From NCBI GenBank assembly GCA_044892525.1, contig CM097887.1, positions 23,126,001 to 23,190,000 on the forward strand: a stretch of DNA of 64,000 nucleotides, read 5' to 3'. Both the position numbers and the translations under genes were made by a program. This document shows positions 1-56,925 of the stretch, in pieces. Below the pieces are notes generated by a model that saw only the letters and a program-made list of their open reading frames with translations, searched no databases and was not told where the DNA came from. Source of the stretch: Schmidtea polychroa. Its lineage: Eukaryota. How positions within the stretch are numbered: the stretch's first letter is position 1; each line of letters opens with the position of its first letter.

Positions 1-3000
1 TTGCTCGTTGTTACCTACTTTCATGAGTTTGTGTAATGGTGTGTCTCCGTAATGATCTGTTATTGTAAATAATATTGGCCATTGGCTTTTGACTACTCGC
101 AATAATGGGTGTGTCCTTTCTCTATTTGCATAGTTTTCGATCATCGTTAATAATCCTCCTAATATTTCGAAGTCTAATCGATCTTTTGCCCATCCGGGTA
201 ACTTGATTTTTACTTCCTTTACAATTTTTTCCGCTTCCGATGGTTGTATGCCCAATCGTCCGATGATGGGTTCTGCAAGTTGTTGCATCATGTTTATTCT
301 GTAGGTTTGCGAACGTGTAGTTAATGTACAGCCTTCTGGTTGACTGGTGGCTGTTTTTGGAATTGATTTGCATCGTGCCACGTTTACGTATATTGGCCTG
401 GTGAATGGGTTATTTACCAATTTCACTCTTACGTTGGTTTCGCCTACGAATAGAATCTCATATGGCCCTTTTCCGTTGCGTTGTAACTTTTTTGTGGTTC
501 CTGGAATTAATTCTGGTGTTTCTATCATTACCCAATCACCTGTTTGAAAAGTGTGTTGCTTCACGTTTTTCTTTCGATCGTGTAAATCTTTATAACTTTC
601 CTGGTAGAACTTGATATTTAACCCCGCGGTTTCCCAAATTTCCTGCATTCTCTCTTTGAATTTCGTAACATAATCGTCTATCTCCATGTATTGCGATATT
701 GGTGGTTGGTATTCCAGGTCCATTGGCATGTTGCATTCTCTCCCGTACATTAATTTAAATGGGCTCATTTTTGTTGACGCATGAATTGACATTCTATAAG
801 CCATAAGACATAGATTTATGTATTCATCCCAATCTCGCTGGTGACGATCGACGTAATTTGACAACATTTGTATGAGTGTTCCGTTAAATCTTTCCGTCAT
901 CCCATTGGTTTGAGGGTGATATGGAGATGTTCTTAGTTTTGCGATTTTGAAATAGTTTGTTACTTCGTTCATTATCTCGCTCATGAAATTAGTTCCTTGA
1001 TCTGTTAATATTTGTTTTGGCGTTCCATATCGGCAACATATTTCTTCCACTAAGATTTTTGCGATTGTTTTAGCTTTTTGGTCTGGCATCGCGAATGCTT
1101 CTGGGAATTTCGTAAGAAAGTCTGTGATCACTAGAATGTAAACATTTCCTTTATCTGACTCTGGTAGTGGACCAACTACGTCCATGGATATCATCGTCAT
1201 CGGCTCTATTGGTACTGGCATTGGCGTTAAAGGCGCTTTCCATTTTGATCCAGTATTTTTCCGTGTTGCACATGTTAGGCAGTTTTTCACCCACTCGCTT
1301 ACGTCTTCCGTCAAGGTTGGCCAAAAATATTTTTGTTTCATTCTTGCTAACGTCTTTTTCGATGACATATGTCCTCCCAATCTACCATCGTGATATTGCG
1401 TTAGTAAATCCTTCCGTCGGTTTTCTGGCACACACATTAATCTCTTCTCTCCATCCATTATCAGTAACCAATCTTTCTCTATAATATATCGATGTCGGTG
1501 TTTATCCATATGTTCTTTTAATTTTTGATCTTTCGCATATACCTCCGTCTTTCCGGTTTTTACATAATCGATAATCCGTTTCAGTTCTACGTCTTCTTGT
1601 TGGTCCTTTCGCAATTGACAGAAATCTAAATCTTCCGCTACTATTAAGCATATGCGTTGCATTGCTGAATCCACCAAATCTGGGAAAATAAATCTTGACA
1701 TACAATCGGCGTTGGCATTTGCTCTTCCCGCTTTGAATTTTATAAATGGGGAGTATTCTTGCAATTGCATGGCCCATCTCATCAGTCTACTGGACGCTTC
1801 TTTATGTTGCCCTAACCACACTAATGGTTGATGATCTGTGGTTATACATATCTCATGTCCCCATAGTAAATATCGGAAGTGTTTGATAGCTTGTATTATA
1901 GCCAATGCTTCTCGTTCTGTTACCGAATAGTTCTTCTCGTGCTTTTTGAATGTTCGACTGTAATATCCAATTACTCTTTCTTTACCTTCGTCGTCTAATT
2001 GTCCCAAAATCGCGCCTGCCGCGTACCCGCTTGCATCCGTTGCTAATAGAAATGGTTTCTTGAAATCGGGGTGTACGAGGATAGGTGCTTTGATTAGTTT
2101 GTCTCTCAGCGTTTCAAACGCCTCTTGTTGTTCCTTCCCCCAAATGAACGAAATGTCTTTCTTTACTAATTCCTGGATTGGTTTTGCAATTCCTGCATAA
2201 TTTTTGATAAATTTGCGATAGTATCCGCATAATCCTAGAAATTCCTGAACTTGGGTGACAGTTTTCGGTGCTGGACATGTTTTTATTTTCTCAATGTTTC
2301 TTGGATCTGGCTCCTTTCCTTTAGCTGACACTATGTGTCCCAAAAACGTGACTTTTTCCTTTGCCCAATCGCATTTTGATGGTTTGAGTTTGAGTTTCCA
2401 TTGTCGTAATCGAATAAATTTCTTTTTTAATTCCCTGATTTTGGTGGTTGGGTGTACTTCTACTTCCTCAACATTCTTATCTGGGTATTTGATTCGGATT
2501 CGGTATCTCTCTTGGGTATCTTGTGACCACTCATGGTTTCGCCACTTCCCGATAATTTGCTCCAGTTGTTCCGGGTACCATTCGTTGTATTGTCGGTATT
2601 CTTCTATAGTTTTTACTATCTCTCTCAGATAATGGATATTATCCGATATTTTTAAAATGAAGTTAGCTAATGTTATTACTTGTCGTTTTTGATTTTTCGC
2701 TCCCTTTATTAGGATATCGCCTAATTGTTTATATCTTTCTCTCTCTTCTCGTTCTCTTGCTTCCGTCGCTTCCTCGCCGTCCATATCAGCATATTCACGT
2801 TCCTTTTTCCTCATTGCATGAATATGTCTCGCTTCATTTTCGCTTTCTGATGTGACATCCGTCTCGCTTTCGTCATCTGATGTCTGTTCCCTTGCTTCCT
2901 CTTCATATTCTGGAGGTCCCTCTTCTTCCTCCTCCGATTCACTTTCTGTCTCGCCAATGTCTGTTTCTACGAAGATTCCTTTCCGGATTTCCCATTCCTT

Positions 3001-4629
3001 ATTCTCTGCATTCCACACTCTTTCCCATGGGGTTCGTCTGCAGGATCTGGTACTTAGTTTCGTGATTTTTCCTTGTAGTTCCTTTTCTTTTAACCATTGT
3101 TGGTGGATTTCAACTATTTCTGTAGATTTTTGATATAACGTTTTCATCCGGTCTCGTATTTCTTTGTGATATGTTACATCTCTTGTTCGAAATTCATCCA
3201 TTGGTACTATCCTGATTATCTGATGATTGTCCCACATACCCATTTCGCTTAACGAGGTGTCGTCCTCCGCTCGTAATATTATTTTATCGTACATCATGAC
3301 TACATCATCTACCATACCATCACTACTTTCGCTACGTACCTTTTCCGTTATCTCTTGGTTTATCTTTGATACCAAGTCATCCACTGTACTCTGATTGCTC
3401 ATTTTTATTCGTCGTTTCTCTTCGTTCGGTAACCATATGGTTATTTCTAACTTCTGTGGTTGGGTCTCCTTTAACCTTCCATATTTGTGAATCAAATTTA
3501 TGGTTCTCCAATCACTCATTCGGAGCATTTCTGTATCTCGCAACCGGCTCATTAGTTCGTACATGGCTGGGGCTCGTCTGGTGATGAGTAAATCCCAGTT
3601 GTCTTCCACTTGTTCTTGAACTTGTTTGATCAGCTTGTCCAGGTTTCGTCTCAGAGTACATTGCTTTATTTGTTCTAATTTCAATTTGATATTAAAATCA
3701 TATTCCGCCTTGGCATCTTTAGCCCAATCGTAAAGGTTGGCTGGTTGTTTTTCTTTGTGCAACTTCAATATTTGCGTTTCTCCTGGCCATATTAGTGCGT
3801 CTACTAAGTGCATATCTGGTTTGATCTGTTCACCTTGGTATTGATACAGATATTCTTTCTTTCTCGAACTTCCCAAATGTTCTCGTATCCAATCGAAAAG
3901 TTCGTCGGTGACTGTATTTTTTATCCACATTCTTTCAAGTCCTCTACTCGTTCCGATTTTTATTACACACCGCGTGGTATCGGCCTGCTTCATTTTTTCC
4001 ATATACTTTTTTATAATTGATTTTTCCTCGTTTGGTATTAGATCTTTCTCGTTTCTTTCCAATTTCATCACTTTTTGTACGAATCGTCTGAATGGTATTA
4101 TATCGATGAACTCTTGGTTCCTCACTACTACTGGGAGTATTTCAGCTACTTGTTTTATCGCTTCCTCCCTCTCTTTTCTCAACTTTATTTCGATATCCCC
4201 GTCTTCACTTCCGCTGGTTGTCTCGCTTTCGCCTTCTTCCTCTTTGATTTCCCCTTTTGGAGGTTCGCTCATTTCATTTAGCTGTAGTATTTCTCCACCC
4301 AAACTGCTCACATAGTCTTCATCTGATGACGACGTACTTTTTATCCTTTTCATCATGTTAATGTGCAAATTTCTCATCCTTGGTACTCGCTTTAGTTTCT
4401 TTCTTTCAAATATCGTTGTTTCTTTTGATTCTAATTCTTGTAGCATTTGGTGGTTTAGTTGACTGGTTTGTTCCTTGCTCTTGTTATTTTCATCTTCTGT
4501 CTCGGTTTTCGCTTTATTATGTTCTTTTTCGATTTTATCTTTTATCTTTTTCCAGAATATTTTCTGAATTCTCTGGTTTCCTTTTAAAATCGTGGTTGAA
4601 TTCTCTGTTTTCATTTCCGTTGTTGTCTT
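1..4629 (-). CDS. pol: Pol-type polyprotein, 1543 codons open to window edge: acidic/coiled region, ubiquitin-like domains, RT C-terminal part only, RNase H, integrase, ankyrin motif
   Basis: Manual translation found no stop from 4629 to 1 (not in the ORF track because it has no stop in the window). Motifs: LKLKPSKC..FLGHIV, FLGLCGYYRKFI, LATDASG (RNase H), YHDGRLGGH..CLTC, SMDVVGP, LTDQGTNF, YHPQTNGMTERFN, GPY, DHYGDTPLH. Confidence 0.92.
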
Positions 4630-5923
4630 TTACTAACTTCATCATATTTATTCGCAATGCTTGTTCTTGTCGTTGTTGGTTGCGTTCTTGTTTTATCCTC
4701 TCTTCCTCGGCCTGTAGTCTTTGCCATTCTTGTACATGTTGATGCACTTCATAATTGTTGAGATTTTCGGTACTCCTCATCATACGTATATTCTGGGTTT
4801 GTTGTGGTGCTGATTCTTGTCTTGGTCTCATCATTTGTTGCATCATCTGTTTCATCTGCGAAATTTCCTGCATAACGTTCATTTGTTTTCCTTCGTTAGG
4901 GTTACTTTGTCGTTGCGGATTCGCCATATAATTATTATTTCGCGGTGGTGGTCGTTGTTGTTGGCCCCTTTCTCGGCAATCTCTGGAGATGTGACCTGGC
5001 TGACTACAGTTAAAACAACCTCTCAATTGGCATACATTTTCGGTATGTCCACGCCGTCCGCAACGATTACAATTTGAATTTCTATAACAATCTCTGTCCC
5101 AGTGTCCTGGTTTACCGCATGTTCGGCATTGCTTGTTATCGTTCAAATTTCGTCGATTATTAAAATTGTTCTCATTATTCAGGTTGTTGCGATTACCATT
5201 ATTCCCATTTGATCGTCCTTGTGGTGGTTTGAAAATTTGATGCGCTCCTGGTATAAATTGATTCATTTTCGGTTCTTGATTGTTGTTATCTCCGTTATCC
5301 GCTTTCGCTATTGCTGTCGCTATCCTCCCATCCTCTTGCATAATATTCACTTGAGCTGGAAGGTGGAGCTCGCATCTTGTAGCCCAATCTATGGCTTCCT
5401 CTAATGTTTTGCACATTTGACAACCTACTGAGGCTCTTACTTCTTCTCGGCGTAATCCCTCTATGAAATAACCGATCAGATTTTCCTCGGGTAATTTTCC
5501 ATTCATTGCTTTCTTCGCTAATCTCCGCAATTCACTGGCATACAATGTTATCGATTCGTTTGCTCTTTGTTTCCTATTTGCTAGTTCGCCCAACGCCTGG
5601 TTGATTGGCTTACTGGCTCCGAAGGTTTTCTTCAGGAATGTTTTGATATCTTCCCACTTTTCTAATTTCGTATCTCTCTCTTTAGCTTCTAAATATACTT
5701 CTAATGCGCTATCGCACAAAAACAACGGCATCCTTTTGCTAATTGCTTCGGGTGTCCATCCACACACTGTGATATACACTTCAAAATTAGTTATAAATGT
5801 TGCTAACTTGTTTGCATTTCCGTTGAACGGTTCTCCTCGGAACTTTTCTTTATACTCATCGGTTTTTACGGCATTCGTCATGATTGGTGTTCTAGATTCG
5901 TCTGTTTCTTTTAAATTATCCAA
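4535..5923 (-). CDS. gag: Gag (capsid-like region plus three CX2CX4HX4C knuckles and N/Q-rich linker); frame open upstream to 6219
   Basis: CRTCGKPGHWDRDC, CNRCGRRGHTENVC and CFNCSQPGHISRDC; retrotransposon gag-like RKQRANESITLYASELRRLA; overlaps the pol frame (+1) at 4535-4629. Confidence 0.92.
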   Translation of the reverse strand: MDNLKETDESRTPIMTNAVKTDEYKEKFRGEPFNGNANKLATFITNFEVYITVCGWTPEAISKRMPLFLCDSALEVYLEAKERDTKLEKWEDIKTFLKKTFGASKPINQALGELANRKQRANESITLYASELRRLAKKAMNGKLPEENLIGYFIEGLRREEVRASVGCQMCKTLEEAIDWATRCELHLPAQVNIMQEDGRIATAIAKADNGDNNNQEPKMNQFIPGAHQIFKPPQGRSNGNNGNRNNLNNENNFNNRRNLNDNKQCRTCGKPGHWDRDCYRNSNCNRCGRRGHTENVCQLRGCFNCSQPGHISRDCRERGQQQRPPPRNNNYMANPQRQSNPNEGKQMNVMQEISQMKQMMQQMMRPRQESAPQQTQNIRMMRSTENLNNYEVHQHVQEWQRLQAEEERIKQERNQQRQEQALRINMMKLVKDNNGNENREFNHDFKRKPENSENILEKDKR

Positions 5924-6219
5924 GGATGTGACTAAACTTTGGGCTGCTAGTTCTTCGGTTGACGTTGCTAAACTATTAGTTATGTCGGACAGACTTTCTC
6001 TGCTTCGAGATCGACTAGGGGTATATCCGAGATTTTCTTGGTCAAATATGGGTACTTGATTGGTTCTTCTTGCTCCTTGTGATATTCCTCTTTGATGTTT
6101 AATAGATCGTCCTCTTTTGAGTTGTTGTAATTTGTCTCCTGAAAATAATACGTCTCCTGACTTACTTGATGATCTGAGATGGGGTTTATCCGTGATTCTT
6201 TTCTTACGCTTCTTTGTAA

Positions 6220-6540
6220 TTAGCGGCTACTGAACCGGACGAGTTCGGATCTGATTACGTTTCCTTCGAAAAGTATCCTGTATGAATCTGCTACTGAGAT
6301 CCTGAGGAGATTTACTAGTCCTTGGCAGATGGCTGCTAATACTATGAGGTTGAATATATCGGTGATTCGTTCGAAGTTGGAGATGTCGCTATCTGTATCT
6401 TCTTCCGTTCTGGAGTCTTCCGGTTGCTGTGTTTCTCGGTGCGGGTTCTGAATGGATTTATTCTTGGTCGATTGTCGATTTCCTCGAATTCCTGTTGTGC
6501 AGGTTCTGGATTGTCTTGGTTGACTGGATTGGTTTGATAT
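6220..6540 (-). CDS. ATG-less ORF0 in the gag frame, starting at a splice acceptor and ending in a single TAA
   Basis: tttttttcattttAG|ATA TCA AAC at 6541/6540; open for 106 codons (includes hydrophobic DIFNLIVLAAICQGLVNLL); the same frame continues after the TAA into gag. Confidence 0.45.
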   Translation of the reverse strand: MSNQSSQPRQSRTCTTGIRGNRQSTKNKSIQNPHRETQQPEDSRTEEDTDSDISNFERITDIFNLIVLAAICQGLVNLLRISVADSYRILFEGNVIRSELVRFSSR

Positions 6541-7246: not shown

Positions 7247-7465
7247 TTACGACTGGCTGGCACTATTCAACAGCTCAATCTTCTTCCTTCTGATCGGTTG
7301 GACTATTCAACAACTCGATCTTACGACTGGCTGGCACTATTCAACAGCTCAATCTTCTTCCTTCTGATTGGTTGGACTATTCAACAACTCGATCTTACGA
7401 CTGGCTGGCACTATTCAACAGCTCAATCTTCTTCCTTGACCGGCTGGACTATTCGACAGCTCGGC
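7247..7465. repeat. 74-bp tandem repeat, about 3 copies (dimer of ~37-bp subunits), in the Gypsy leader
   Basis: ttacgactggctggcactattcaacagctcaatc... starts at 7247, 7321 and 7395. Confidence 0.9.
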
Positions 7466-7838
7466 TTTAATATTCCCCGCTCTGCATGCTTCTACTTCTC
7501 TTTTCTTCTTTTACCCTAGATTACCATTTTCTCTGTCTACTTTTAATTTGTCGACTTAATCTTTACCGCTTGAGAGTGTTTCCCCTTTCCCCCCTTGCTC
7601 GAAACGCACGACGATCGCGATGATCCGTTTCCACATTAGCATGGTGATCAGTCATGCCGCAGAAACTTCTCATCATATGCGATGGTACCCCGCCCTACGC
7701 TTCTTACTTGGGTTGATCAGTTATCCCCTCCCAACGGGTTCTTGCAATAAAACGTACCGCCCGAAGGTGGCTCGGTTTGTACCCCTGCAGCCTATATTGG
7801 GACTAATTCCACGTTAGTTTTATTCTTCTCCATTCGAT

Positions 7839-7848: not shown

Positions 7849-8034
7849 AAGATGTAATTAAAAGAGATAAAATATCTAATTCATAACAACAAAAAAAATT
7901 TTTATTTATTCTGAGACTAAAATTAAACATTAAAGTTACTTCACACTTAAAAGTACATATATTCGTATTCAAAGGTCTTTTATCAATTTAGTGCGCATAT
8001 ACGTCACTGCATCTGGTTAGTTGTTTTAATCACC

Positions 8035-8510
8035 TTAATAAACCATATGGGTTTCTTTTATCCCATTTTTATATATTGTACATCGCTTCAGATCTTTCAC
8101 GCACTCTTCACAATGACTGAGGTGTCCACAAGGTAAGAATAGTGTGCGTATAGGGCGAAGATTGCAAGACAGACAGGTTCGCAATTTGGTGAGTTTCTCT
8201 TGTATCTTTTGTTCGATTGCCTCTGATATTGTATGTAGTTGATCTTTTATTCGCTCGTATTCTAGATTTAGGGCCGGGTTTTTAGTCGTTTTAGGTACCA
8301 TTGATATACTGTTTCGTGATTTATCTTTTCATCTGAGTGGCTTAAACCTGCGGCCAATAACACGTGATTAGGTACGACTGGTGTATGTCCGATTGCTTGG
8401 AGTAAAATGCTGTTGATTCGCTTTCTTTTTTGTATGAGTGTTTTAATAGGGTCGTTTTCTATATTAATGAAATTAATTAATTGTTGCATCTGTTCTGCGA
8501 ATTCCGTCAT
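8035..8510 (-). pseudogene. IAP-type RING finger protein, frameshifted (about 158 aa if repaired)
   Basis: ORFs 8268-8510 and 8035-8301 join by restoring one A in the A-run near 8282. CLSC-x11-CGH-x3-CEEC-x6-CTIY matches IAP RING spacing with the last Cys changed to Tyr; C-terminal aromatic residue present. Confidence 0.8.
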
Positions 8511-9377
8511 GTCTATTGAGAAAAGGAAAAAAAAATTTTTTTTAATAATATACAGCTAATTAATGGTTATTTCATCAAACATTTTCTTTTAATTCGTTAT
8601 AATTTATTTTATTTTTATCCTATTTCCCGATTATTTACTTTATTTATATCTTTAATTCTATTATTTTCTAATCGTAATTTCTAATAGGATTCGATAGGCA
8701 TTAGTCAATTTGCATTCGCCCACTAATTGACATCGATAATCCCGGTGAATTCACATTATTCGACAGAAATTCCATATTACATCCCGGCTGAGCCCCCAAA
8801 AATTATGCTGGGGTAGTGCTTGGTTGACTCTGCTCAATCTACATCCTTGTCTAGGGGGTGCGTGTCCATATCATTACGCTACATACGCCCGTGTCAACCC
8901 GGAGCAGGACCCCGCACAACTTGCCCTCCAACATAGCACCCGCGAATTGCTTCACGTTGGAAATGTGCTATGCCGGCGAGACTCCAGTAAGCAGGTGAGC
9001 CCCTACCTTAGGACTACTCCTTACTGAGGCCTCGACTTCCCTTTTCTGACGGCCGATGGAAGGACTTACGTCTGTTTACCTCATCAGATTCTCTCTCTAC
9101 CCTGACCCATTATTCGGCACAAAATTGACCACTGCCTCTCGAACTCAAAATTTACTCTCGCTTTGCGAACACTACTCTGAACCTTTACCACAGCTAGTTA
9201 GATTTAAACAACAACAAAAATTTAACCAAAAATTTCTTTATTTTATTATCATGATACATTAGATAATTATACACTACATAACAAGTACACTTGGTGGAGA
9301 ATAGATTAAGAAGAAAAGGAGTCATGATAGTATATTTGTCCATTCGCACCCTGCACGGTTGTATTGTGTTGCGGCCC

Positions 9378-10121
9378 TCACTTCTCCCACCCCGCATCCG
9401 CCAATAGCTCATCTAGATCAAAAAACTCGGAGGCATTCTCCTCCCAAGTCACACCAGCGGCAGATATGATTCGCCCTGGGATTCCACCGGTCAGATCGAT
9501 CGTTACGGGTGGATCATTCGAAGCACTTGGGTGGTTGGCAGATAGTTCTCGTTGTTTGACAATTGCTCGTTCACGTTGGCGCTTCTTACGCTCCGCTCTG
9601 GACAATTGGCGACGCTTAGGTTTTGAGGGGTTAGCAGACAAGATTGCCGAGGACGTCGTGGCTGAATGCGATACCTTGCCAGTGCCGGGAGTAGGTACGT
9701 CCGATGGCCTGGGGGAGAGGTCGGCCTCCACACATTCCTGACAAGATCTTTTCGACAAGGGTGGCGAACTAAATGAAGGTTCATGGTGAACGGGGAAGAC
9801 ATTGTCCGCTTCTTTAATCGGAATACTAACGATCCTTCGGGTTGTAGCGGCTTGAACGTAAACTTTATGTAGAGCTTCGGACTGCTCTTTGATTAGGCTA
9901 CGCTGAGCTCTACTTTCGCTTATCAAAGCATCGCGACAATGCTCACTGCGGTACAATTTCTTTTGAACTTCCTTCATTTGTACTGGGCTAAACCATGTAC
10001 CTTCCAGATCGTCGATTTTCTTTTTATATCGACCGATCTGGGCCTGTAATTCTCGGATCACGGTGTTTTTGTCGGCACAGGAGAAACAGGGTTTGAGCGA
10101 CGGCTTCGAGCTTGGCAACAT
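9378..10121 (-). CDS. Accessory ORF (247 aa): CxxC plus coiled coil, Ser/Pro linker, basic NLS-like segment, acidic-aromatic C-terminus
   Basis: Intact ORF with ATG 9 nt after acceptor tttctttgttacAG (10131); KPKRRQLSRAERKKRQRER; EENASEFFDLDELLADAGW; AATAAA at 9237-9247. Confidence 0.75.
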   Translation of the reverse strand: MLPSSKPSLKPCFSCADKNTVIRELQAQIGRYKKKIDDLEGTWFSPVQMKEVQKKLYRSEHCRDALISESRAQRSLIKEQSEALHKVYVQAATTRRIVSIPIKEADNVFPVHHEPSFSSPPLSKRSCQECVEADLSPRPSDVPTPGTGKVSHSATTSSAILSANPSKPKRRQLSRAERKKRQRERAIVKQRELSANHPSASNDPPVTIDLTGGIPGRIISAAGVTWEENASEFFDLDELLADAGWEK

Positions 10122-11986
10122 TTTTGATAACTGTAACAAAGAAACAATGAGAATAAGAATTAAGATCGGCGATTTCTACTAAACTAGTATGGACACAATC
10201 ATTGGTTGATTTTCGTAAAATTAAGTAAAAGGAAAAAAAAATAAATAAATGATATAGTTTCGTTAGAAATAGTGTTAATTGCATTCAGTGAATTTTTAGA
10301 TGTCCATTTAGGGTGTAGGAGAAATTAACATTTGAATAATACTCTGCCAAAAATTTATGGTTATACTTAAAATATCCATTACCTACTGTTATCTGAGATT
10401 TTCAAATATTTACGTGAAAAATGACTCGCGAATGTATTGACATAATGGACATTAGATTTACAGTTTACCATAGAAATGGTTTAGGAAGAATCAGGAATGT
10501 TTGCATGATTGAATAATTAATGTTCATTTTTGCACATAGCTTTTCGACTACAGATATTTATTTTTGAAAAACGTAAAACAAAATTCTCCAGTGCCGCGTG
10601 AACGATCCTTAAATTAATGGCCCCAAATTGTAACTCATATTTGAATATTAAATTCAGAAAACCCGTTTAATCAACGTGCTACTATTAGATATTTAATAAG
10701 TCGCGTATGATCAGATTTCTATCCCCACCCTAAAAATCAATTTATTTATTTTTCATTATGGAGTCTACTGGTGCAATCAACCTATAAAATTTAGTCGATT
10801 ATTAACAGTCATCCGACGACGCATGAATCACTCGTAGAAATCATTAGCCACATGAATCGGAAAGATACGTATCGATTGGAGATAATTATGTCATGTGCGT
10901 GTGCCTCAGTTTTTGTTCTCACCGTCATTAGCGGGCTGGGAAAAGGATGCATGCGGCATATGTCAATGTGTATTTATATGTGGCAATGCGTGTGATTTGC
11001 CTTGTCTGCTTTCTTACTATCTATGTCAACGGGTTGCAGCTGATCGTCTCACACTGCGAGTTGGAATTATTTTAGTTATTCAATATGTTCTCTATGAGTA
11101 ATTCTCACCGCGCATGAACGTTGGAATTTTATTCTCGCGATGTGCAGTTCCCTCCGTTTTTCAACTTGGATGTTGTGATTTCGGGGAATATTCCCAGCAG
11201 TTCATTCAACAGAAATCTCTCTTATTTTGGTCGAAAGAGTCATTTATAGAAAGAACCTCGCGTTGCCGCTATCGTGGATTTTCAGGAGCAATGGAAAAAT
11301 TACAGCGTTTGTTGACAATTATATTTATACTAAAAATCTTTTGTTGAATAAATCTTCATTTATGCTCTCTATATTCTGATTTCGCATTTGATGAACATAT
11401 TTGTACGCGGTAAGTTTTGATAGAAAAATATTTTTCTGCTAAAAGATAGAATGTCAGTTGATGTCAATATACGATTTCTGATGTCAGTGTGATGTTTACT
11501 AAGAGTTTGTAGCCACCTCAGTCATTTTCAATTCAGATTTGCTCTACTTTTCAATATTGGAATATATTCCTCTGTACTTTAAACTCGTGCTTGCAGCATT
11601 ATATTTCCCTCAGCGACGGACCCGTGAGGAAGCCCCCACATTCCGGCCCACGTCAGCTGCGTGATTGAAGAGATCCACACCCGCCGGCTGAGCTCCCGAA
11701 GGCTCCTCATACCATGGCGTGGGTCTCCTCAACTCCACGTTTCTCAAAACAAATAATTTTAGCATAATCAATACGTTCGATGACAAAACATAACATAAAT
11801 ATTTATATATCATTAACCTTTAAATTAATTTACGAACTATAAAATCATTAAAAATTGAAATCGAATGGAGAAGTTTTTATTCAAAGGTTAGGTTAATATA
11901 ATAGAAATATTTAATCCTTCAAAAAACAAATTTCATAACAGCAATACATCCTTACTTCATTATTTGAAAAATTCTGTAGTTCCAAA

Positions 11987-12549
11987 GGCTGAGCCGAAAT
12001 ATAAACTGATCAAATCGGTTATATGAATGAGTAGTCTATAGAACTGTCCCTAATAGTCGTCTGAGTATGGTTTGGTTTTCCTGATTGTCGAGTACCTATA
12101 ATTGGTTTGGTTTTAACATTTTTATATAGTTAATACTATTCTTACCTATAATTGGTTTGGTTTTAACATTGACTATAGTGAATTTGCTGTTTACTTATAT
12201 AGGTATTTTTTGTTTATGCGGACCAATCAGAATTGAGTACCGCCTTATTTTATTCATTTAATTTATTTTCCTTGTTTTTGGGTTATTTCTTCTTATTTTC
12301 TTTATTAAAATTATGTTTTTATTTATTTTCCTTAATTTCCTTATTATCTACTACCTTTTACGTTATTTTTCGTCATTCTATTGTCCTATTTAATTGTTCT
12401 TATTTTTATGTTTTTTGTTTTAATTCTTATTTTCTAATTATTGCTTTTCTTATATTCTATTCTCTTTTATTCCTCAATCTATTTATTTTATTTTATATTT
12501 TTCTTTAGTTAAGTTTAACCTGATTTCCCAACTATCTTTCGGCTCAGCC
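11987..12549. mobile_element. MITE-like element with 13-bp terminal inverted repeats
   Basis: GGCTGAGCCGAAA at 11987 and its reverse complement ending at 12549; non-coding interior with a duplicated 29-mer; no clear TSD. Confidence 0.55.
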
Positions 12550-13359
12550 CAACACCTGGGAAGAAGACGCAAGAGACTTATTCGATCTTGATGTGATCTT
12601 CGTCGGAATTTCCCCGACAACTCTATAACAAGTGTGTGAATGTCTTAACGTTGTGATTGTACGAGTAGATTACCCGTTGTTGAATTTTTCTTTTGTGTGA
12701 TATTAGGACTGTAGTGTGAAGCTACCCCAGGAGCTGGTGATGATCGATTTCGTAATAATGTGTATTTAAAATAAATCTTTTGCGTTAACTAGTAAAGCGA
12801 GTTTGCGAATTATTATGCTGCATTTGTGTTGTAAGATTGAAATGGGTGAAAATGGTATATATAGGTTTTACTATTTCTAATCATATTTCTCAAGTTACCT
12901 CGTACGCTGGTTACGCCAGGCTGTATGCGGCGAGGTAATTTCCCATGAAGGTTTCATATCACGAAATTTTGAGATCTGGGTCCTTCAAGGCTTTTAACCA
13001 ACATTTATTATTAATTCATGTATATATAATTATATATTTATTTATTCATATTTTTATTTATTTGAGTTGCTACCCATAGGGTTCTTATTACAAACGTATT
13101 TGTATTGGAATTTTTACTATACTATTTTATATTATATTTTATCGAATTTCTGATTTAAATTTTCTAAACTAGTTTTCTATATGAATTGCTTATGAATTAA
13201 TCAATTATTGTTTTATGGGTTTTGACTATTTTGGTTTTAATTTATTTTGTTTACGTTTATTATTTATTTAATATTTTGGTAAGATTTACAGGTACACAAA
13301 ACAAATAATTGAGGATACTAAATTTTATTTATTTATCACAATTCTTAATGTTTTATTTT

Positions 13360-13640
13360 CTCTCTGGTAGCTGGTCACGACTTTCTTGAGCTCCGATTCT
13401 TCTCCATTGATGAAGTTGATATAGTTCCAGAAGAAAAACAGTTAACGACTCGCTGTATTTCGAAAGCAATGCAACCTATTTCACAGGTAATGGACATTTT
13501 TGTAGATAATAACCCTGACGAAAATCAATGCTTAACGGTTACGCGAACTATTGATAGCGCTATCATTTGCTATAAAGAAATTTATATGGAAAAAATGCTG
13601 CACGAGTTCAGCAAACTTTAAACAAGTTTTTAACTGCAAC
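13360..13640 (+). pseudogene. Possible pogo/Tigger transposase C-terminal relic
   Basis: TIDSAIICYKEIYMEK resembles the CYxEIYxEK tail of Tigger-type transposases. Confidence 0.35.
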
Positions 13641-13894
13641 ATTACGAGAACCAAACCAGAATCAGTCTACAGAAACGGTAATCGATTTAGAATCGTCAAG
13701 TTCATCAAATTAGAATTAAGAAAAAGAAAGTTACAAACTGTTTCTGTGTAGGGTTTAACACACGAATATATTCGTCGAATACTATTCGAATAATCTCTAC
13801 AGTAGATGGATTGGGCACCGCTAGCACAGTACCCCCCGCCCCCCGGTCGTAAAAAATTAAAAAAAATTTTTTTAAAGGTCAAATTTTAAACAAA

Positions 13895-14270
13895 GACATA
13901 TGACTCATCAAGGTCATTGAAACAAAGACCATGACTCATCCAATGACTCATCAAATTTCTCGAGGTCATTTAAACAAAGACCATGACTCATCAAGGTCAT
14001 ATGACTCATCAAAATTTTCAAGGTCATTTAAACAAAGACCATGACTCACCCAAGGTCATATGGCTCATACTATGACTCATCAGGTCATATGATTCATACT
14101 ATGACTCATCAAGGTCATTTTCAAGGTCATATGCCTCATCAAGGTAAAAAATTCCCAAGGTCATTTTCAAGGTCACCTGAGTCATCCTATGACTCATCAA
14201 GGTCATTTTCAAGGTCGCATGACTCATCCAAGGTCATATGAGTCGTCGCGATGAGTCATCAAGGTTATAT
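13895..14270. repeat. Subterminal array of ATGACTCAT and (TC)AAGGTCA motifs
   Basis: At least ten ATGACTCA/TGAGTCA motifs interleaved with at least ten AGGTCA motifs, often as ATGACTCATCAAGGTCAT; TTCCCGCCAA (E2F-like) at 14326. Confidence 0.9.
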
Positions 14271-14427
14271 CATTATTTTTAAAAAATATTATTATTTTTA
14301 AAAAATATTATTATTTTTTTCAAAGTTCCCGCCAACGAAAATTATTTATCGATAGCTCATTTTAAAGCTCAATCCAAGACCTTTCGAATGAGCCATATAT
14401 CTTGTTATTACGATTATTCTTTCTAAA

Positions 14428-14500
<73 letters not shown>
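14428..14500. repeat. (ATT)n microsatellite
   Basis: Direct inspection. Confidence 0.95.
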
Positions 14501-14501
<1 letters not shown>

Positions 14502-14656
14502 AAAAAAATGTTTTTTAGTTTTGTTGAGTTTTTAATTAAATAAATATTAACGTCAGAGTTTTGATGTTCTGAAAAACAATTATTTATGTTGCGGCCCGCC
14601 GGCTCATAATACTAGTCTAATGCGGCCCGCAGGCCAGTTTGAGTTTGAAACCCCTG
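14500..14656. mobile_element. hAT (Charlie/Buster-like) terminal fragment inserted into the Polinton arm
   Basis: Minus strand reads CAGGGGTTTCAAACTCAAACTGGCCTGCGGGCCGCA from 14656, a typical hAT terminus with GCGGCCCG repeats. Confidence 0.65.
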
Positions 14657-14910
14657 ATCTATAGGTTCATCTATAGGTTCATAGATTTCCTCATCAATTT
14701 CTTGAGTTTCTTCCTCATCATCAAATCCTGTATCTTGACTCTCAACTATCCAGCCGATATTTAAGGCATTTGTAATAGATAATATGTCCTCAATTTTCAC
14801 ACCAGCTATTTCTGCTAACTTTTCCAACAAAAAGTTGATTACAAATTCTAAATAATAAATAATTCGGTAATTAATTAATCATGTTAACCTTTTTCTGCAG
14901 TCATTTTCAT
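14657..14910 (-). pseudogene. Polinton small acidic-tail gene, 41-nt intron (14848-14888), 3' end cut by the hAT insertion
   Basis: MKMTAEK-E|FVINFLLEKLAEIAGVKIEDILSITNALNIGWIVESQDTGFDDEEETQ after GT-AG splicing; TATAAA about 27-32 nt upstream of the ATG. Confidence 0.5.
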
Positions 14911-15036
14911 CACTTTAAAACTATATTATAAGTTTGTTTATAGATTTTCTTTGTTAAATTTGCATGTCATTTGCATTTATGTTGCAATTAATAAAGAGAA
15001 AAACAAATATGACTAATACATTTATTAAATAGAACA

Positions 15037-15429
15037 TTAAAATATTTGTGAAAGTCTAGCAGACATAATTTTCCAAATAGGAGAATATACATCATTATTA
15101 TCAACTTTATATCCCTGGATTGCAATTGTTATATACCAATTTTCATTTTCTTTGAAACTGATTTCATCAAAAGCATCATAAAATCTTGCATATCTATTGT
15201 TGAACCATGCATGTTGATTACACGATAGATTCGAATCTAACCGTTTAAAAACATCATCAATAGTTTTGACATCAATCATTGAAAGCGTGCCGGATAAGAA
15301 TTGAAATTTAGTTGAAATTAGCTTGACTGGTGCAACCAATTTCATATTGATTTCTTCTTTCAAAAAATACATTTTATAGTTGTGGAACATTTCTTTAGGT
15401 TTTTCGGTGCATGAAATTTTCTTGGTCAT
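15037..15429 (-). CDS. Polinton-associated protein (130 aa), possibly an OB-fold ssDNA-binding protein
   Basis: Intact ATG-stop ORF; C-terminal WYITIAIQGYKVDNNDVYSPIWKI resembles viral T7 gp2.5/DUF2738-like SSB strands (by eye only). Confidence 0.6.
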   Translation of the reverse strand: MTKKISCTEKPKEMFHNYKMYFLKEEINMKLVAPVKLISTKFQFLSGTLSMIDVKTIDDVFKRLDSNLSCNQHAWFNNRYARFYDAFDEISFKENENWYITIAIQGYKVDNNDVYSPIWKIMSARLSQIF

Positions 15430-15462
15430 AGTGAATAATGATTAAATTGAAATGTTACAGGG

Positions 15463-15540
15463 TTTTTATACCTTTGACTCATGCCTATCAACCAATCAGA
15501 TTATAGCATGTCTTTGTTTAAATTTGCATGTCATTTGCAT
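15463..15540 (-). promoter_or_regulatory. Pol II-type promoter: two octamers, CCAAT, AP-1, TATA
   Basis: ATTTGCAT at 15522 and 15533, CCAAT at 15493, TGACTCA at 15475, TATAAAAA at 15470-15463, ATG at 15429. Confidence 0.65.
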
Positions 15541-15751
15541 TAATGCTGCATTTATGTTCTATTAATGTGACATATTATTATTAATGTTTTATTATTAATG
15601 TTTTATTATTATTACTATTTATATTACTATTTATATTATTTCTATTATTATTATTTCTATTTATATTATTATTACTATTTATATTATTACTATTATTACT
15701 ATTTATTACTATTTCAAATCTAAAAACGCAATAGAAACAAAAATACATTTA

Positions 15752-16162
15752 TTAATATTTATCAACAATCCGGGAGTAGTGAAACCTTCTCAGAGTTTTC
15801 ACTAACTCCCATTCGACATATCGCCGATATCGATCGGCACAACATGAACATCCGAACATATTTTGATACTCCGGCTCCATTTGTTTCATGGTTCTATTAA
15901 TCTTGATATCCCATAGGAATTGATGGAATACCTCCATGGTTCTAATTTGAGTGGAATAGAATATGAGATCCGGAATGATTTCTGGTTCTCTATCCTTGAT
16001 TATTTCTGCAATTTGAGGATAATAATATTTTATCCTATTCAGCATTACTTCTAAATATTTTTCTAAAATAATAAATATAAAAAATGTGAAAATAAAAATT
16101 TTAAATTTACCATAGTCGTCAATATCTTTCATTAGATTTGCTGCGCTTGGTATTTTGTACAT
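15752..16162 (-). CDS. Polinton orphan gene with a CxCC motif and a 48-nt in-frame intron (16063-16110)
   Basis: MYKIPSAANLMKDIDDY-E|KYLEVML...FGCSCCADRYRRY. The low-complexity GKFKIFIFTFFIFIIL stretch is exactly a GTAAAT...TTTTAG intron. Confidence 0.6.
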   Translation of the reverse strand: MYKIPSAANLMKDIDDYGKFKIFIFTFFIFIILEKYLEVMLNRIKYYYPQIAEIIKDREPEIIPDLIFYSTQIRTMEVFHQFLWDIKINRTMKQMEPEYQNMFGCSCCADRYRRYVEWELVKTLRRFHYSRIVDKY

Positions 16163-16221
16163 TTTGTTGAATAAATGAATCCTAAACAAAAAACCGTTTG
16201 TTTAAATCAATCAATAACCAA

Positions 16222-16656
16222 TTAGAAATCGACCAATGAAATTATCTCATTTCGAACATTGTCAACAAATTCTCTATACTCCAAATTTCTCAACCCCAAC
16301 ATGACAACCTTTCCACTAGCAAACACGTTGACACATATAAGGTTATATTTTAATAGTCTTATTGCCGGAAACAATTCCGGTTCAAACATACAATCACATT
16401 TTTTCGACATGTTATATAGATTGATACTATGTCCCATATCCATAGTAACGGTAATTGATTGGATTATAATATTATTTATTCGATATTGCAATTTATTATC
16501 CAAAGGTTTCTTACATCCCATGATTCGGCATTTACCAGTCTTGAAAAATATTATCGGATATTTCCCGCTTCTATCGATAATTTGCTGGGGTTTCCCTGAT
16601 GGGAACCTCATATTCGATACATCAAAATTTCCTCGATAATTTATATTTGCTAACAT
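16222..16656 (-). CDS. Minimal TATA-binding-protein (TBP)-like protein, 144 aa, two repeats
   Basis: Repeat 2, IQSITVTMDMGHSINL..MFEPELFPAIRLL..VNVFASGKVVMLG, aligns to TBP IQNMVGSCDV..IRL..YEPELFPGLIYRM..LLIFVSGKVVLTG. Repeat 1 retains NI..IIFFKTGKCRIMG. Confidence 0.88.
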   Translation of the reverse strand: MLANINYRGNFDVSNMRFPSGKPQQIIDRSGKYPIIFFKTGKCRIMGCKKPLDNKLQYRINNIIIQSITVTMDMGHSINLYNMSKKCDCMFEPELFPAIRLLKYNLICVNVFASGKVVMLGLRNLEYREFVDNVRNEIISLVDF

Positions 16657-16759
16657 TATTAAATCATTTATGAAAGTTAGTCTTTATATACAAATTGAGC
16701 ACGAGTTCAATAAATCATCGAATATAAACAAATACACATATATTTTTAAAATTTTTGAA
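16657..16759. promoter_or_regulatory. Bidirectional promoter between the TBP-like gene and the ATPase
   Basis: TATATAAA on the minus strand about 28 nt upstream of the TBP-like ATG; TATAAA at 16723 about 32-37 nt upstream of the ATPase ATG (16760). The background is AT-rich. Confidence 0.45.
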
Positions 16760-16892
16760 ATGGAATTAAGAAATGATGCAGTATACCAAATCGTTGGTCC
16801 GAGTGGTAGTGGAAAAACATTATTTGTTTGCAAATTACTAAAATCAAATTTATTCAAAACAAAATTCAACAGGATTTATTGGCATAGGGGTG
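16760..16892 (+). pseudogene. A32/FtsK-like packaging ATPase N-terminus, truncated
   Basis: MELRNDAVYQIVGPSGSGKTLFVCKLL..FNRIYW: Walker A plus the downstream F-x-x-I-Y-W strand of Polinton ATPases; sequence switches to piggyBac after about 16892. Confidence 0.75.
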
Positions 16893-18601
16893 TAGATTTT
16901 GTAGTTCAGAAGAAGAGGACATTACTGACAAGAGTACAGAGGCAGAAGATAACTGTAGTTCCAGTTATCAAGACGAAATTGCACCTGTTCAAATACCAGA
17001 CCCACTCGACCTACCATGGAGTTTTTCTTTAAGGTCTCATCCAGCGTTTCTTTTTTAAGGCGATTCTGGTATAAAGCTTGACAATTTAAACAAAGATAAC
17101 CCTATCCAACTGTTTGAATGTTTTTTTTTACTGACGAGCTTATAAATAAAATCGTTGTTGAAACAAATCGTTATGTGGAGCAGTATCTGAACTATAATAA
17201 AGACAATATAAAAAATCAATTTCGAGTAAAAGAATGGACAGCAACTATTATTATTCAGGGAATCTGCATAAATCCAGAGTGTAGATTATATTTTACGAAA
17301 CGAGAGAGCATCGAAACACCATTGCTTTGTAAACAACAAGGAGTTTGATGCTAATTCACCAAACCGAAGATTATTCAAAATTCAGCCGTTTATGTTCCTA
17401 ATCAAAAGATTTCCATTGACGAATCATTGATTGGGTGTAAAGGCCGGCTCGCCTGGAAACAATATATTCCCTCAATAAGAAAGAGATTTGGAATGAAAAT
17501 ATTTGTATTGTGCGAAAGTGAAACTGGTTATGTATACAATTTTTTTATTTATACTGGCTCGAGTACCCAGCATGGGAATTCCATTTACCTGATGAACCTG
17601 TATTTGGTAGAGTCGTATTGGAGTTATCACATTCGCTTCTGAACAAGGGTTATTGTTTATACGTTGATAATTATTATACCAGTCCCGATCTTACTGATAA
17701 ATTAATAAAAAGACGAATAGATTTTGTTGGAACGATGAGAGTAAATAGAAAGGGAATTCCAACTGAAATAAAATCTAAAAAATTACAAAAAGGAAATCAT
17801 ATTGCAATGTACAGAAGAAAACAAATGATAATGAAATGGAAGGATAAAAAAGATATAGTAAAATATAGTAATAGCACGATTCATGACGATAGTAAAAAAT
17901 TAGTAAAAGGAAAAAGCGGGTTCAAGGTGGAAAAACCGACTGTAGTGTTAGATTATAACTCAAGAATGGGAGACGTAGACTTGGCCGATAATATGCTCCA
18001 TTTTTACACATCGGCAAGATGTCGCCTAAAAAAATATTATATGAAAATATATAGGCATTTTTTAAATGTGGCTTCTCTTAATTCATTTATTTTATACAAA
18101 AAGCTAGGAGGACGGAAAAACCGCCTCAACTTTCTCTTAGATTTTTGGGAACAAATCGTAGAACAATATGCCACAGAAAAGGAGGTTTGTGGAAGAAGAC
18201 CAAAAATACCGAGACCATTGCGATTCCTTGAACGACATTTCATTGGTCTAATACCCCAAACTACGAAAGAAAACCCCACAAAACGTTGTGTAGTATGTTC
18301 CGAAAATGGGAAAAGGAAAGAGAGCAGGTATTGATGTGCTGATTGTTATACTGGACTTTGTCCAGCAACATGCTTCAAAATTTATGATACGAGAGACGAA
18401 AGAAATTGACCTAAATTGACGAAATATGTTAAAAATATATCATAAATATTACTTTTGTTAACATATTATCTTAATAAATATCATCGAATAAGATATTTTA
18501 TTTTTGTAACACTATGCCCAAGATGTATATATACGCTAGCGGATAACAAAACTCGCCGCTGAGGAGCGCATTTCGTTTGACGAAATAAACCACTTAAGAG
18601 G
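16893..18601 (+). mobile_element. piggyBac-family element, 5'-truncated, transposase with stops and frameshifts
   Basis: FFTDELINKIVVETNRY, SIDESLIGCKGR, LYVDNYYTS, VGTMRVNRKG, YNSRMGDVDLAD, C-terminal RCVVC..KESRY; right end ...AAGAGG followed by TTAA at 18602. Confidence 0.9.
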
Positions 18602-19149
18602 TTAAATAACATTATATTAAAAATAACTATTAAACCCATCATCATCTGACATCAGGGATGCTGAAAACAACAATAATACTAAAAATAGAAATTGTTTTAC
18701 ATTTAAAAATAGAAAATTGTTTACAACATAACAAATGTTAATGCTAAGAACTACAAAATTTTAGTATATAAACCAACGTTGAGATTCTTGGAATCTCAGC
18801 ATATACATCAATAACCACTGAACTTAAATTTCGGCCAGCACTTCACTGAATTTCTGGAAATTAGCTCTTTCCAACTCTATATCACATATATCATTAGAGT
18901 TTAAAAGATATCAATACTAATTGTGAGGAAGGATTAATTCCGATAGGTCATGCTGTAAGCAGAGCGCCCTGGCGCATGACACGCAATGAAAATCGCAACC
19001 GATAGGATGCGGCTAGCGTTTTGAGAAATCAAGTGTTCTTACCTGGATCGCCATCTGCTGTTATGATTACTATCGGCTTCGCTGATTTATATATTTGCAG
19101 ATAGAAGACTGAAAAGCAAATTTATACTAATGGGACAAGTCCCTTGTTT

Positions 19150-19500
19150 TCTTAGGTTAAGAAGACCATGTTTTCACATCAATATTGTCTTGTAACTTTG
19201 GTACCATGTTTAAACATTTGATCATATAATCTCACTCCAGTCTCATTCGACAATGATAATGATTGCTTCCCCATTTTCTCCTGTAGCCGTTGTTAAAGTT
19301 GGTACTAAAGCATTTAACAAATTCTCTTCTATAATTCTTTAATCAAGTTCGGAGTCAATTAATGCATGAACGGAGTATTTTATGAATTGTATTAGGTTCT
19401 TTCGGCATTTGTTTTATTTTCTAATCAACTTTATCTACTTATCTGCATTATCTAGTACACCACAGCGCTTTCCAGCTTCTTTGTAGAGGTGCCAAATTTA
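19150..19500 (-). pseudogene. Gypsy gag/protease relic
   Basis: Decayed VHALIDS (aspartic protease-like) downstream of the LTR at 19517-19928. Confidence 0.4.
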
Positions 19501-19516
19501 TTTAAAATCACTATAT

Positions 19517-19928
19517 TGTAACAAATGTAGAAAATTATATATATTCAGGGAACCCATTAATTGTTAAATTATTGAGCTTAGAAAGTAAAACGAGATACAA
19601 AATGAAAATGGATATTTCCGATTTTCAAATATTATTTCCGGATTTTCAAAAATCTATAATTTTAAAAATCAATAAAGTCAATAAAAAATAAAGTCGATAA
19701 AAAAATAAAATCGATAAAAATAAAATCATAAAAATAAAATCAATTAAAATAAATCGATAATATAGATGGAAAATATGCAATAAAATCAATAGTGCTAAAA
19801 TGATTAATTATCAATATATAAAAACTAAGATTATTATATTATAAATAAAAACACAACACTAGTAAATAAATATACGAAATAAACAGTGGTCAATGAATAT
19901 TAATGAATATTAATAACACTATGTTACA
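19517..19928 (-). repeat. LTR (412 bp)
   Basis: TGTAAC...GTTACA termini; purine tract AGGGAGGAAA immediately upstream on the minus strand. Confidence 0.65.
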
Positions 19929-20895
19929 TTTCCTCCCTGGCACCTTACAAATTTTATTATAAAAAAAAATCTTGTTGGCACAGACCAAAAATTGTCTAAG
20001 AGAATTCGTTTTATTAAACACACTCACATTTACGAATAGTCAGTTAAAGCACTTTCTATTTAAATAAATGATTTTCCGGTCTGTTGGAATTTATAAACTG
20101 ATTTTTGTACAATTTTTTATTACTGCTATTATTATTATCAAGAGTAGGACAAAATTCTGTGGGTTTCGGTATTTGATTTTCCAGGTTGACTGATAGGTCC
20201 ATATCCTCGAATTCGCTGGCAAAAATGAACTGGTTGTTTAATTCCGGATTAAATCTCGGTGACTGAACGCTGGAAATGTAGACGGAGATTTTAAACTTAA
20301 ATTTATCAATAAATGAAAACAATAAACTTTTAACCACGAGCGCTATATTGACGATTTTTTTCAGAACTGCAAGTGACGTGTATACCACGTCGATAGTATT
20401 TGTCGCAAAAACAAAAACAAAAGTAGACTATTGATTAATAAAATTTATTGTTGTTGTGAATAATTATTTATATTCGTGTAAATCTTTTATGTAAGACCCT
20501 GCCCTCGCGCTAAGCACTGGTCAAACCTCTGAGCTCGCTGACGCGGTGAGGCGTCGATGCCTTACGATATTTTATATAGTAGAGCGCGGCTCAGCTACCG
20601 AAAATTAAATCATAGCGCAAGTGGTTAAAATAAATTTGTACATTTAGCACTCAAAATTGCAAATAATATCCAAATTAAATATATTATTGAATCAATATAT
20701 TGATAAAATTTTTTGATGATTTTATAAACATTTATTGAATTAAATATAAAATATTGAATNNNNNNNNNNNNNNNNNNNNNNNNNNNNNNNNNNNNNNNNN
20801 NNNNNNNNNNNNNNNNNNNNNNNNNNNNNNNNNNNNNNNNNNNNNNNNNNNNNNNNNNNNNNNNNNNNNNNNNNNNNNNNNNNNNNNNNNNNNNN

Positions 20896-27103: not shown

Positions 27104-56925
<29,822 letters not shown>

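Follow-up and report, generated by a model that had tools for sequence, protein, structure and literature searches.

The window analysed here, a stretch of 64,000 nucleotides from Schmidtea polychroa, carries on its minus strand a RING accessory gene without BIR domains (8026..8510) that encodes 161 amino acids in intact copies and is broken in the window copy. Its start codon lies at 8510-8508 and the stop codon of its family at 8026-8028. The product joins a helical, family-specific N-terminal domain of about 110 amino acids (8176..8510, minus strand), made of four short helices and one long helix that runs into the RING, to a C3HC4 RING (PF13920; 8038..8175, minus strand) with a tail tyrosine equivalent to Phe616 of cIAP1. 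Translation of the minus strand at 8175-8071 gives the spacing C-x2-C-x11-C-x-H-x3-C-x2-C-x6-C-x2-Y with a helical region ahead, as an earlier note on this DNA had described it, and the lack of a BIR domain that the note asserted is confirmed by Pfam, which matches the window frame to zf-C3HC4_3 (E 1.2e-09) and detects no BIR in it. Upstream, a pyrimidine tract and a YAG two bases before the ATG (8513..8535, minus strand) form a likely splice acceptor.

Alignment to a natural copy (L003) shows a 1-nt gap near 8284 in the window copy together with 8 substitutions, one of which replaces the last zinc ligand, Cys, with Tyr (8071-8073), while another creates a stop at 8035-8037, three codons ahead of the family's stop. 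The frameshift and the lost cysteine had been recognized correctly from the sequence, and the premature stop, overlooked at that time, is an additional lesion. The gap sits in a homopolymer run and is found in 2 of 30 close copies (the window copy and L020), so slippage or an assembly error may account for it; the window copy is non-functional whether or not the gap is genuine.

The carrier of the gene is a 22.4-kb internally deleted copy of a ~30-kb Burro-type Gypsy LTR element, and the description of the gene as retrotransposon-borne holds, since it lies inside an LTR-bounded element and is linked to a primer-binding site (PBS). The RING gene is located about 270 bp downstream of the PBS, which follows the 3,749-bp LTR. 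This PBS, which we take to be of the tRNA-Pro type, occupies 8781..8798 on the minus strand, 7 nt after the LTR end, and the 5' LTR (8806..12554, minus strand, TG...CA) is preceded by a 4-bp target duplication, CAGG. The LTR contains a conserved frame of 245-265 amino acids (9378..10175, minus strand) without a Pfam match. On the other side of the RING gene, gag (4535..6226, minus strand) consists of Retrotrans_gag and three CCHC knuckles and has a frame break near 4626, and the rest of the polyprotein (1..4630, minus strand) comprises a Ubl-like region, RNase H, integrase and the start of the ankyrin repeats. About 5.0 kb has been lost in frame near 2418, and with it the BCL2-like region, the env-like fusion domain, the protease and most of the reverse transcriptase. 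The part beyond the window (L031) holds further ankyrins, a frame of 128 amino acids, a complete TRAF and two coiled-coil frames, and the element closes with a shortened 3' LTR that ends at G000:C3:23116200; about 1.9 kb at the 3' end is also absent. The two LTRs differ at 9 of 2,379 shared bases, which indicates a young insertion. Both ends of the 22.4-kb element are bordered by the 4-bp target duplication, and the empty site is preserved in an inverted copy of the region.

Several further observations concern this neighbourhood. The surrounding DNA forms an inverted duplication, at least 7.5 kb long and 97% identical between its arms (window 12554-20000 versus L032); the element occupies one arm, and the empty site in the other (L032) has a single CAGG. 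The LTR frame of 245-265 amino acids is kept in elements of families A (the family of the window element) and C, with 64-68% identity between A subfamilies and saturated dS, and the family-B LTR holds a shorter frame at the corresponding place, with no Pfam match. A 74-bp tandem repeat of about three copies is found at window 7247-7468, in the leader that separates the RING gene from gag, and occurs in more copies in other subfamilies. The TRAF gene beyond the window is complete and intronless (RING, zinc fingers, coiled coil and MATH; L031:5088-6521, minus strand), with a dN/dS of 0.12-0.17. Elsewhere in the window are a Tc5/pogo-like transposase (35029-36468), a piece of an IS4/piggyBac-like transposase (17522-18334), a Ras-family exon (44832-45548), a TBP exon (16222-16683) and a strongly G-skewed repetitive stretch (53001-55488).

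Complete family-A copies measure about 30 kb, with an LTR period of 24.6-26.4 kb plus the 3.7-kb LTR, and the order LTR-PBS-RING-gag was found in 9/9 further family-A elements mapped, 4 of which have a frame of 4,732 codons from stop to stop. This agrees with the long LTRs and the single polyprotein of 4,700-5,100 amino acids that mark Burro-type elements. The complete polyprotein contains gag, Ubl-like, weak BCL2-like and viral fusion domains, followed by protease (PR), reverse transcriptase (RT), RNase H, integrase and ankyrins, and separate frames for a full TRAF and for coiled-coil proteins lie after it. The env-like fusion domain stands between gag and protease in a natural copy (L097; PF24664, E 7e-71). 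The ankyrin and TRAF matches are clear, those to Ubl (Rad60-SLD, E 5e-4) and Bcl-2 (E 0.06) weak. For the suggestion that the RING works together with the element's Ubl domains, no evidence was found, the weak Ubl matches lying inside the polyprotein. Between family-A elements such as L096 and L108, dS is 1.1-1.8 across the LTR, leader and RING block and 0.04-0.28 across gag-pol, a pattern which suggests that LTR-leader modules have been exchanged between family-A lineages.

Intact copies, which the earlier note had proposed to seek, proved abundant. All 40 scored DNA matches are full-length (79-100% identity), and an open frame of 161 amino acids was present in 23 of 30 close loci fetched, the other 7 being broken. 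Among the best 150 protein matches of 3,571 candidates, a ranking that favours intact copies, 141 have no internal stop. An exact pattern for the LTR-PBS junction, which covers families A and C, occurs 650 times as opposed to 0 for the reversed control, and 105 of the 111 copies examined have a PBS-like 18-mer no more than 1 kb upstream. For family A, from which 8 of 71 loci were left out as lacking an intact frame, Nei-Gojobori dN/dS is 0.122 over the whole frame, 0.064 in the RING and 0.13-0.16 in the N-terminal part, based on 55 non-independent pairs of 11 copies less than 93% identical; single pairs give Fisher p values of 7e-9 to 3e-31. Family C yields 0.10 (13 copies), and of the 20 C/D loci, 2 yielded no frame and another 2 were set aside because of their length. 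While the flanks accumulate many gaps, the length of the RING frame stays constant. Both domains are under purifying selection, in hundreds of copies. A neutral passenger, or a host pseudogene that happens to lie next to the element, is a barely credible reading of the frame: three lesions in the window copy and the 7 broken copies among 30 close ones would suit such an origin, but the gene sits inside an LTR-bounded element with a target duplication and an adjacent empty site, its dN/dS is far below 1, and it is retained in three families. Neither of the outcomes against which the earlier note had set its claim, universal decay or an unlinked host pseudogene, was observed, as intact copies are under selection and the gene is element-borne. 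The window copy is a dead copy within a non-autonomous element, and it marks a real, selected accessory gene of several families.

The distribution of this gene reaches well beyond family A. Family C/D, with about 140 matches, encodes a 159-aa orthologue of 41-45% identity, and its polyprotein is 85-88% identical to that of family A. In family B, a RING frame of 160 amino acids follows directly after the same PBS in both complete elements mapped, and these elements also carry a BIR+RING frame; the two RING genes are about 19.5 kb apart (2/2 mapped). The family-B RING protein shares 25% identity with the window gene over 151 aa without gaps, and its frame is open in 150/150 copies among the matches listed. 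A profile of the non-RING part of A and C scores the B N-terminus at 34.8 bits, a value reached by 0 of 500 shuffles, and the helical N-terminal domain is conserved in the three Burro families; the RING is the sole Pfam domain in the A, B and C proteins. The pyrimidine tract and YAG before the ATG recur in 63/63 intact family-A copies, 30/30 family-B copies and 16 of 18 C/D copies. Because orthologues stand at the same position in A, B and C/D, the gene is older than the split of the families, and it coexists with the BIR+RING protein.

A BIR search of the genome gave at least 150 scored matches, mostly frames of 392-393 amino acids with BIR and RING downstream of TRAF. These family-B frames fit the description of B-IAP, the captured BIR+RING protein through which Burro1 is reported to protect planarian stem cells (Lee et al. 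2026, as cited in the accessible portion of PMC13465017). No BIR-like sequence was found in A and C elements (0 of 13). As far as the accessible text of PMC6431247 describes them, the giant Gypsy-like LTR elements Burro and GYPSM1 of planarians share with the window's family the size of about 30 kb, the single polyprotein with gag, Ubl-like, weak BCL2-like and env-like regions, the last between gag and protease, then PR-RT-RH-IN and ankyrins, and the TRAF/MATH and coiled-coil accessory frames. In contrast, the window's family has MATH solely in the separate TRAF frame and no BIR, and a small RING gene between PBS and gag goes unmentioned in that accessible text. The traits of Burro1, a BIR frame and MATH in the polyprotein, are absent from the window's family, with Burro1 set apart by description alone, whereas family B resembles Burro1 in carrying the BIR+RING frame. 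Published accounts already cover Burro elements, B-IAP and the cargo related to apoptosis and ubiquitin; a BIR-less RING gene upstream of gag is undescribed in the literature searched, although the text or supplements of Lee 2026 or Grohme 2018 may describe one.

B-IAP and the product of the new RING gene are alike in being element-borne and in having a PF13920 RING whose ligands are equally spaced. However, B-IAP possesses a BIR, is encoded 3' of the polyprotein, has both the CPxC proline and the linchpin arginine, and groups with host IAPs, while the RING gene lacks a BIR, lies 5' of gag, and has an unrelated helical N-terminus and a lineage of its own. In the RING tree, which comprises 62 columns with long branches and is midpoint-rooted without an outgroup (the TRAF outgroup dropped out), B-IAP clusters with the host IAPs that contain introns (97/94), and the new family is placed separately. 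A constrained clade of the new family and B-IAP is rejected on these 62 long-branched columns (p-AU 0.012), and one of the new family with all IAPs gives an AU p of 0.18 (62 columns). It is accordingly very unlikely that the RING gene is a recent truncation of a Burro1-type B-IAP that lost its BIR. The shared PF13920 RING, the equal spacing and the relatedness of the elements would be in keeping with such an origin, but family B carries both genes, the joint clade is rejected, and against the N-terminal profile the pre-RING region of B-IAP does no better than shuffled sequence, its score being reached by 344 of 500 shuffles. The RING protein is not an IAP, having no BIR, and is not a truncated B-IAP. 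The same shuffle result led to the rejection of a UBA-like N-terminus similar to the B-IAP pre-RING region. The intron-containing host IAP genes, at G000:C2:155085001-155115000 and C2:76559501-76579500, have RINGs that group with B-IAP, which suggests that they represent the donor lineage of B-IAP.

Among solved structures, the RING is closest in sequence to cIAP2 (E 6e-11), cIAP1, BIRC7 and XIAP, followed by MYLIP (E 1.4e-06) and CGRRF1, and matches to the MDM2/MDM4 RING are distant (E ~1e-3). In the AlphaFold model (pLDDT 88.8), four short helices are followed by a helix of 32 residues and then the RING. In fold, the modelled RING is closest to that of IDOL (Foldseek E 2.5e-05; with VIA, 63 residues superpose at Z 9.1 and rmsd 1.2 A), with the RING of BIRC7 level at VIA Z 9.0, and it also matches many viral IAP and BIR-less RINGs. 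Since IDOL and IAP RINGs fit equally, the label "IAP-type" given in the earlier note expresses a resemblance: the best sequence matches to cIAP and XIAP agree with it, but the fold tie with IDOL and the rejected B-IAP clade do not. Likewise, the spacing said to typify IAP RINGs is present but is not specific to them, as IDOL/MYLIP fits the model equally well. The proposed phylogeny against host IAPs places only B-IAP among them, and membership of the new family in an all-IAP clade stays compatible with the alignment. Compared with the defining features of IAPs (BIRC), the C-terminal C3HC4 RING, the x11/x6 spacing and the tail aromatic are present and the BIR is lacking. The RINGs of cIAP1, cIAP2, XIAP and BIRC7 share the spacing and a tail aromatic in register with cIAP1 Phe616, but the new family has no detected BIR, UBA or CARD and has mostly lost the proline and the linchpin arginine; the family-A tail is one residue longer than that of IAP RINGs. 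IDOL/MYLIP, the top fold match, is a weaker sequence match than the IAPs and has a FERM domain that the new family lacks.

The N-terminal domain by itself gave no ESM Atlas match, no Foldseek match at E<=0.001 (low-confidence model, pLDDT 70) and, by VIA, helical matches of Z<5 alone. With the single RING protein as query nothing was found in the homologue search, an exact look-up of five genome proteins found none, and a profile search retrieved two unnamed 160-aa family-B-like proteins and one snail IAP (E 4e-4, among longer proteins), and nothing else.

The residues of the RING surface bear on function. A proline in the CPxC motif is important for RING activity. In cIAP1, Val573 contacts the E2, Arg606 serves as the linchpin, and Phe616, contributed by the partner chain, holds the donor ubiquitin (accessible text of PMC6349121). 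In RNF38, E2~Ub binding drops 21-28-fold when the linchpin is Asp, Ala, Thr or Val, and Lys is the next most active residue after Arg, and XIAP, with Tyr at this position, is still a weak ligase (PMC12326332, accessible text and Table 1). Heterodimers with one inactive RING are established, according to the available part of PMC7005916. Across 84 distinct natural proteins (59 from A, 9 from B and 16 from C/D), the Phe616 position is Tyr in all 84, the CPxC proline is kept in 1, and the linchpin is Arg in 8 and Lys in 50. Family A has Lys at the linchpin in 49/59 and Ser or Ala at Val573 in 57/59; family B has Asp at the linchpin in 9/9 and family C has Ala, Thr or Val, and both retain a hydrophobic residue at Val573. 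Among the controls, proline and arginine are both kept in 14/14 B-IAP RINGs and in 7/7 host or snail PF13920 RINGs. The last four zinc ligands, which lie outside the search pattern, are preserved in 63/63 A and 30/30 B copies, and R122 and E153 are conserved residues specific to the family. The complete set of cIAP-type contacts of an active E3 (Val573, Arg606 and the CPxC proline) was not found. An invariant tail tyrosine combined with the loss of proline and arginine implies that selection keeps the fold and the tail that acts in trans, and not the activation surface that acts in cis.

Tentatively, we favour the reading that the product, of 159-161 amino acids, may act as a partner RING in the manner of MDMX, with itself a weak capacity for priming. 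An LTR-driven, spliced subgenomic mRNA would express the RING gene, with the YAG before the ATG as acceptor. The product would then dimerise, through its RING and tyrosine tail, with an active RING ligase, the most likely partners being IAP-type RINGs, either Burro1-type B-IAP or host IAPs; for families A and C, which have no BIR protein of their own, an IAP partner must come in trans. The self-ubiquitination or targeting of the partner would be altered, while the product itself would prime ubiquitin transfer weakly, and the net effect could be that self-destruction of the IAP is limited, or that the IAP is redirected to a target held by the helical domain. Such a partner RING would favour cell survival during replication of the element. 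MDMX, BARD1 and BMI1, as presented in the accessible text of PMC7005916 and PMC12326332, are RINGs that dimerise and prime E2~Ub poorly, which is the mode proposed here; RING homology to MDMX is distant, so that the analogy is functional and the partner hypothetical. On splicing, contigs of four presumed-RNA runs cover the family-A leader in patches and contain no GT-AG joint. One joint near the acceptor starts where the PBS ends, and a divergent subfamily is the better explanation for it. A complex prediction for the homodimer scored 0.01, which is uninformative either way.

Some observations weigh against the partner reading. Lys, the linchpin in 49/59 proteins of the window's family, is the next-best residue in RNF38, and XIAP remains a weak ligase with Tyr, as far as the accessible data for both go; the hydrophobic residue at Val573 persists in families B and C; A/C elements (0/13) have no BIR protein; the importance of the CPxC proline rests on general background and on its conservation in the control RINGs; and R122 and E153 could favour self-pairing over pairing with an IAP. 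A weak or E2-specific active ligase is a strong rival and quite possible, if somewhat less so. On this account the protein would be a homodimeric E3 whose helical domain picks a substrate, either a host restriction or silencing factor or a protein of the element, and a non-UBE2D E2 would tolerate the changed RING surface. The intact zinc ligands and tail tyrosine and the position of the RING as the most constrained part in family A (dN/dS 0.064) agree with activity, as do the tolerated Lys and Tyr linchpins of the partly available RNF38 and XIAP data, the many viruses that carry BIR-less PF13920 proteins, and the success of families A and C without B-IAP. However, the linchpin varies freely (K, R, T, D, A, V, S) between conserved neighbours, Asp, the family-B residue, ranks low for E2~Ub binding in the accessible RNF38 data, and the proline is lost in 83/84 proteins. 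Of the earlier description as an E3 or dominant-negative RING, the second half, a dominant-negative or partner role, fits the residue pattern better, and the active E3 less well.

A role outside the ubiquitin system, in which the RING would serve the element directly, as a scaffold stabilised by zinc that assists in assembling particles, handling RNA or transcribing from the LTR, is improbable. It would accord with the way the gene travels with the LTR and leader block, as between two copies the RING protein is 73% identical (dS 1.3) while their gag, RT and integrase are 99% identical (dS 0.04-0.14), and with an N-terminal domain that has no match in the libraries searched. Against it stand the invariant tail tyrosine, whose known role, in the accessible literature, is activation of E2~Ub by the dimer, and the neighbouring cargo (TRAF, Ubl, BCL2-like and B-IAP), which points to ubiquitin and death signalling; the 1-nt gap at the same place in two copies may also mean that the gene is dispensable in cis.

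Returning to the partner RING, a bolder and rather doubtful extension is that Burro elements encode a two-RING switch similar to MDM2/MDMX, in which the ancient BIR-less pseudo-ligase, retained by three families or more, would pair with the anti-apoptotic B-IAP or host IAPs and control their self-destruction. If so, families without B-IAP would tap or parasitise the stem-cell-protecting function reported for Burro1. Apart from this extension, the Burro1-like elements have a second, older RING gene in common with more distant families without a BIR protein, and its signature under selection, an intact dimer tail with a degenerate activation surface, is unusual. If it does act as a partner RING, a transposon would here encode a regulator of IAP ligases. 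Knock-downs of whole Burro transcripts may have hit two RING genes together.

A comparable gene occurs in a different kind of element. A Polinton/adintovirus-like element (L258, L310) carries its own 163-aa BIR-less helical+RING gene (G000:C1:210078481-210078969), together with an adenain protease (PF00770), a frame that presumably encodes a polymerase and a 426-aa frame that we assume to be capsid-like. In the RING tree this RING lies near the new family (80/88). A common origin of the two genes is unsupported, as the N-terminus of the Polinton-like protein scores at shuffle level (217/500). The Polinton-like RING gene has at least 150 scored matches, including a tandem array with a period of about 1 kb at C1:8.68-8.73 Mb, and its RING also combines the loss of the proline and the linchpin arginine with a tyrosine tail.
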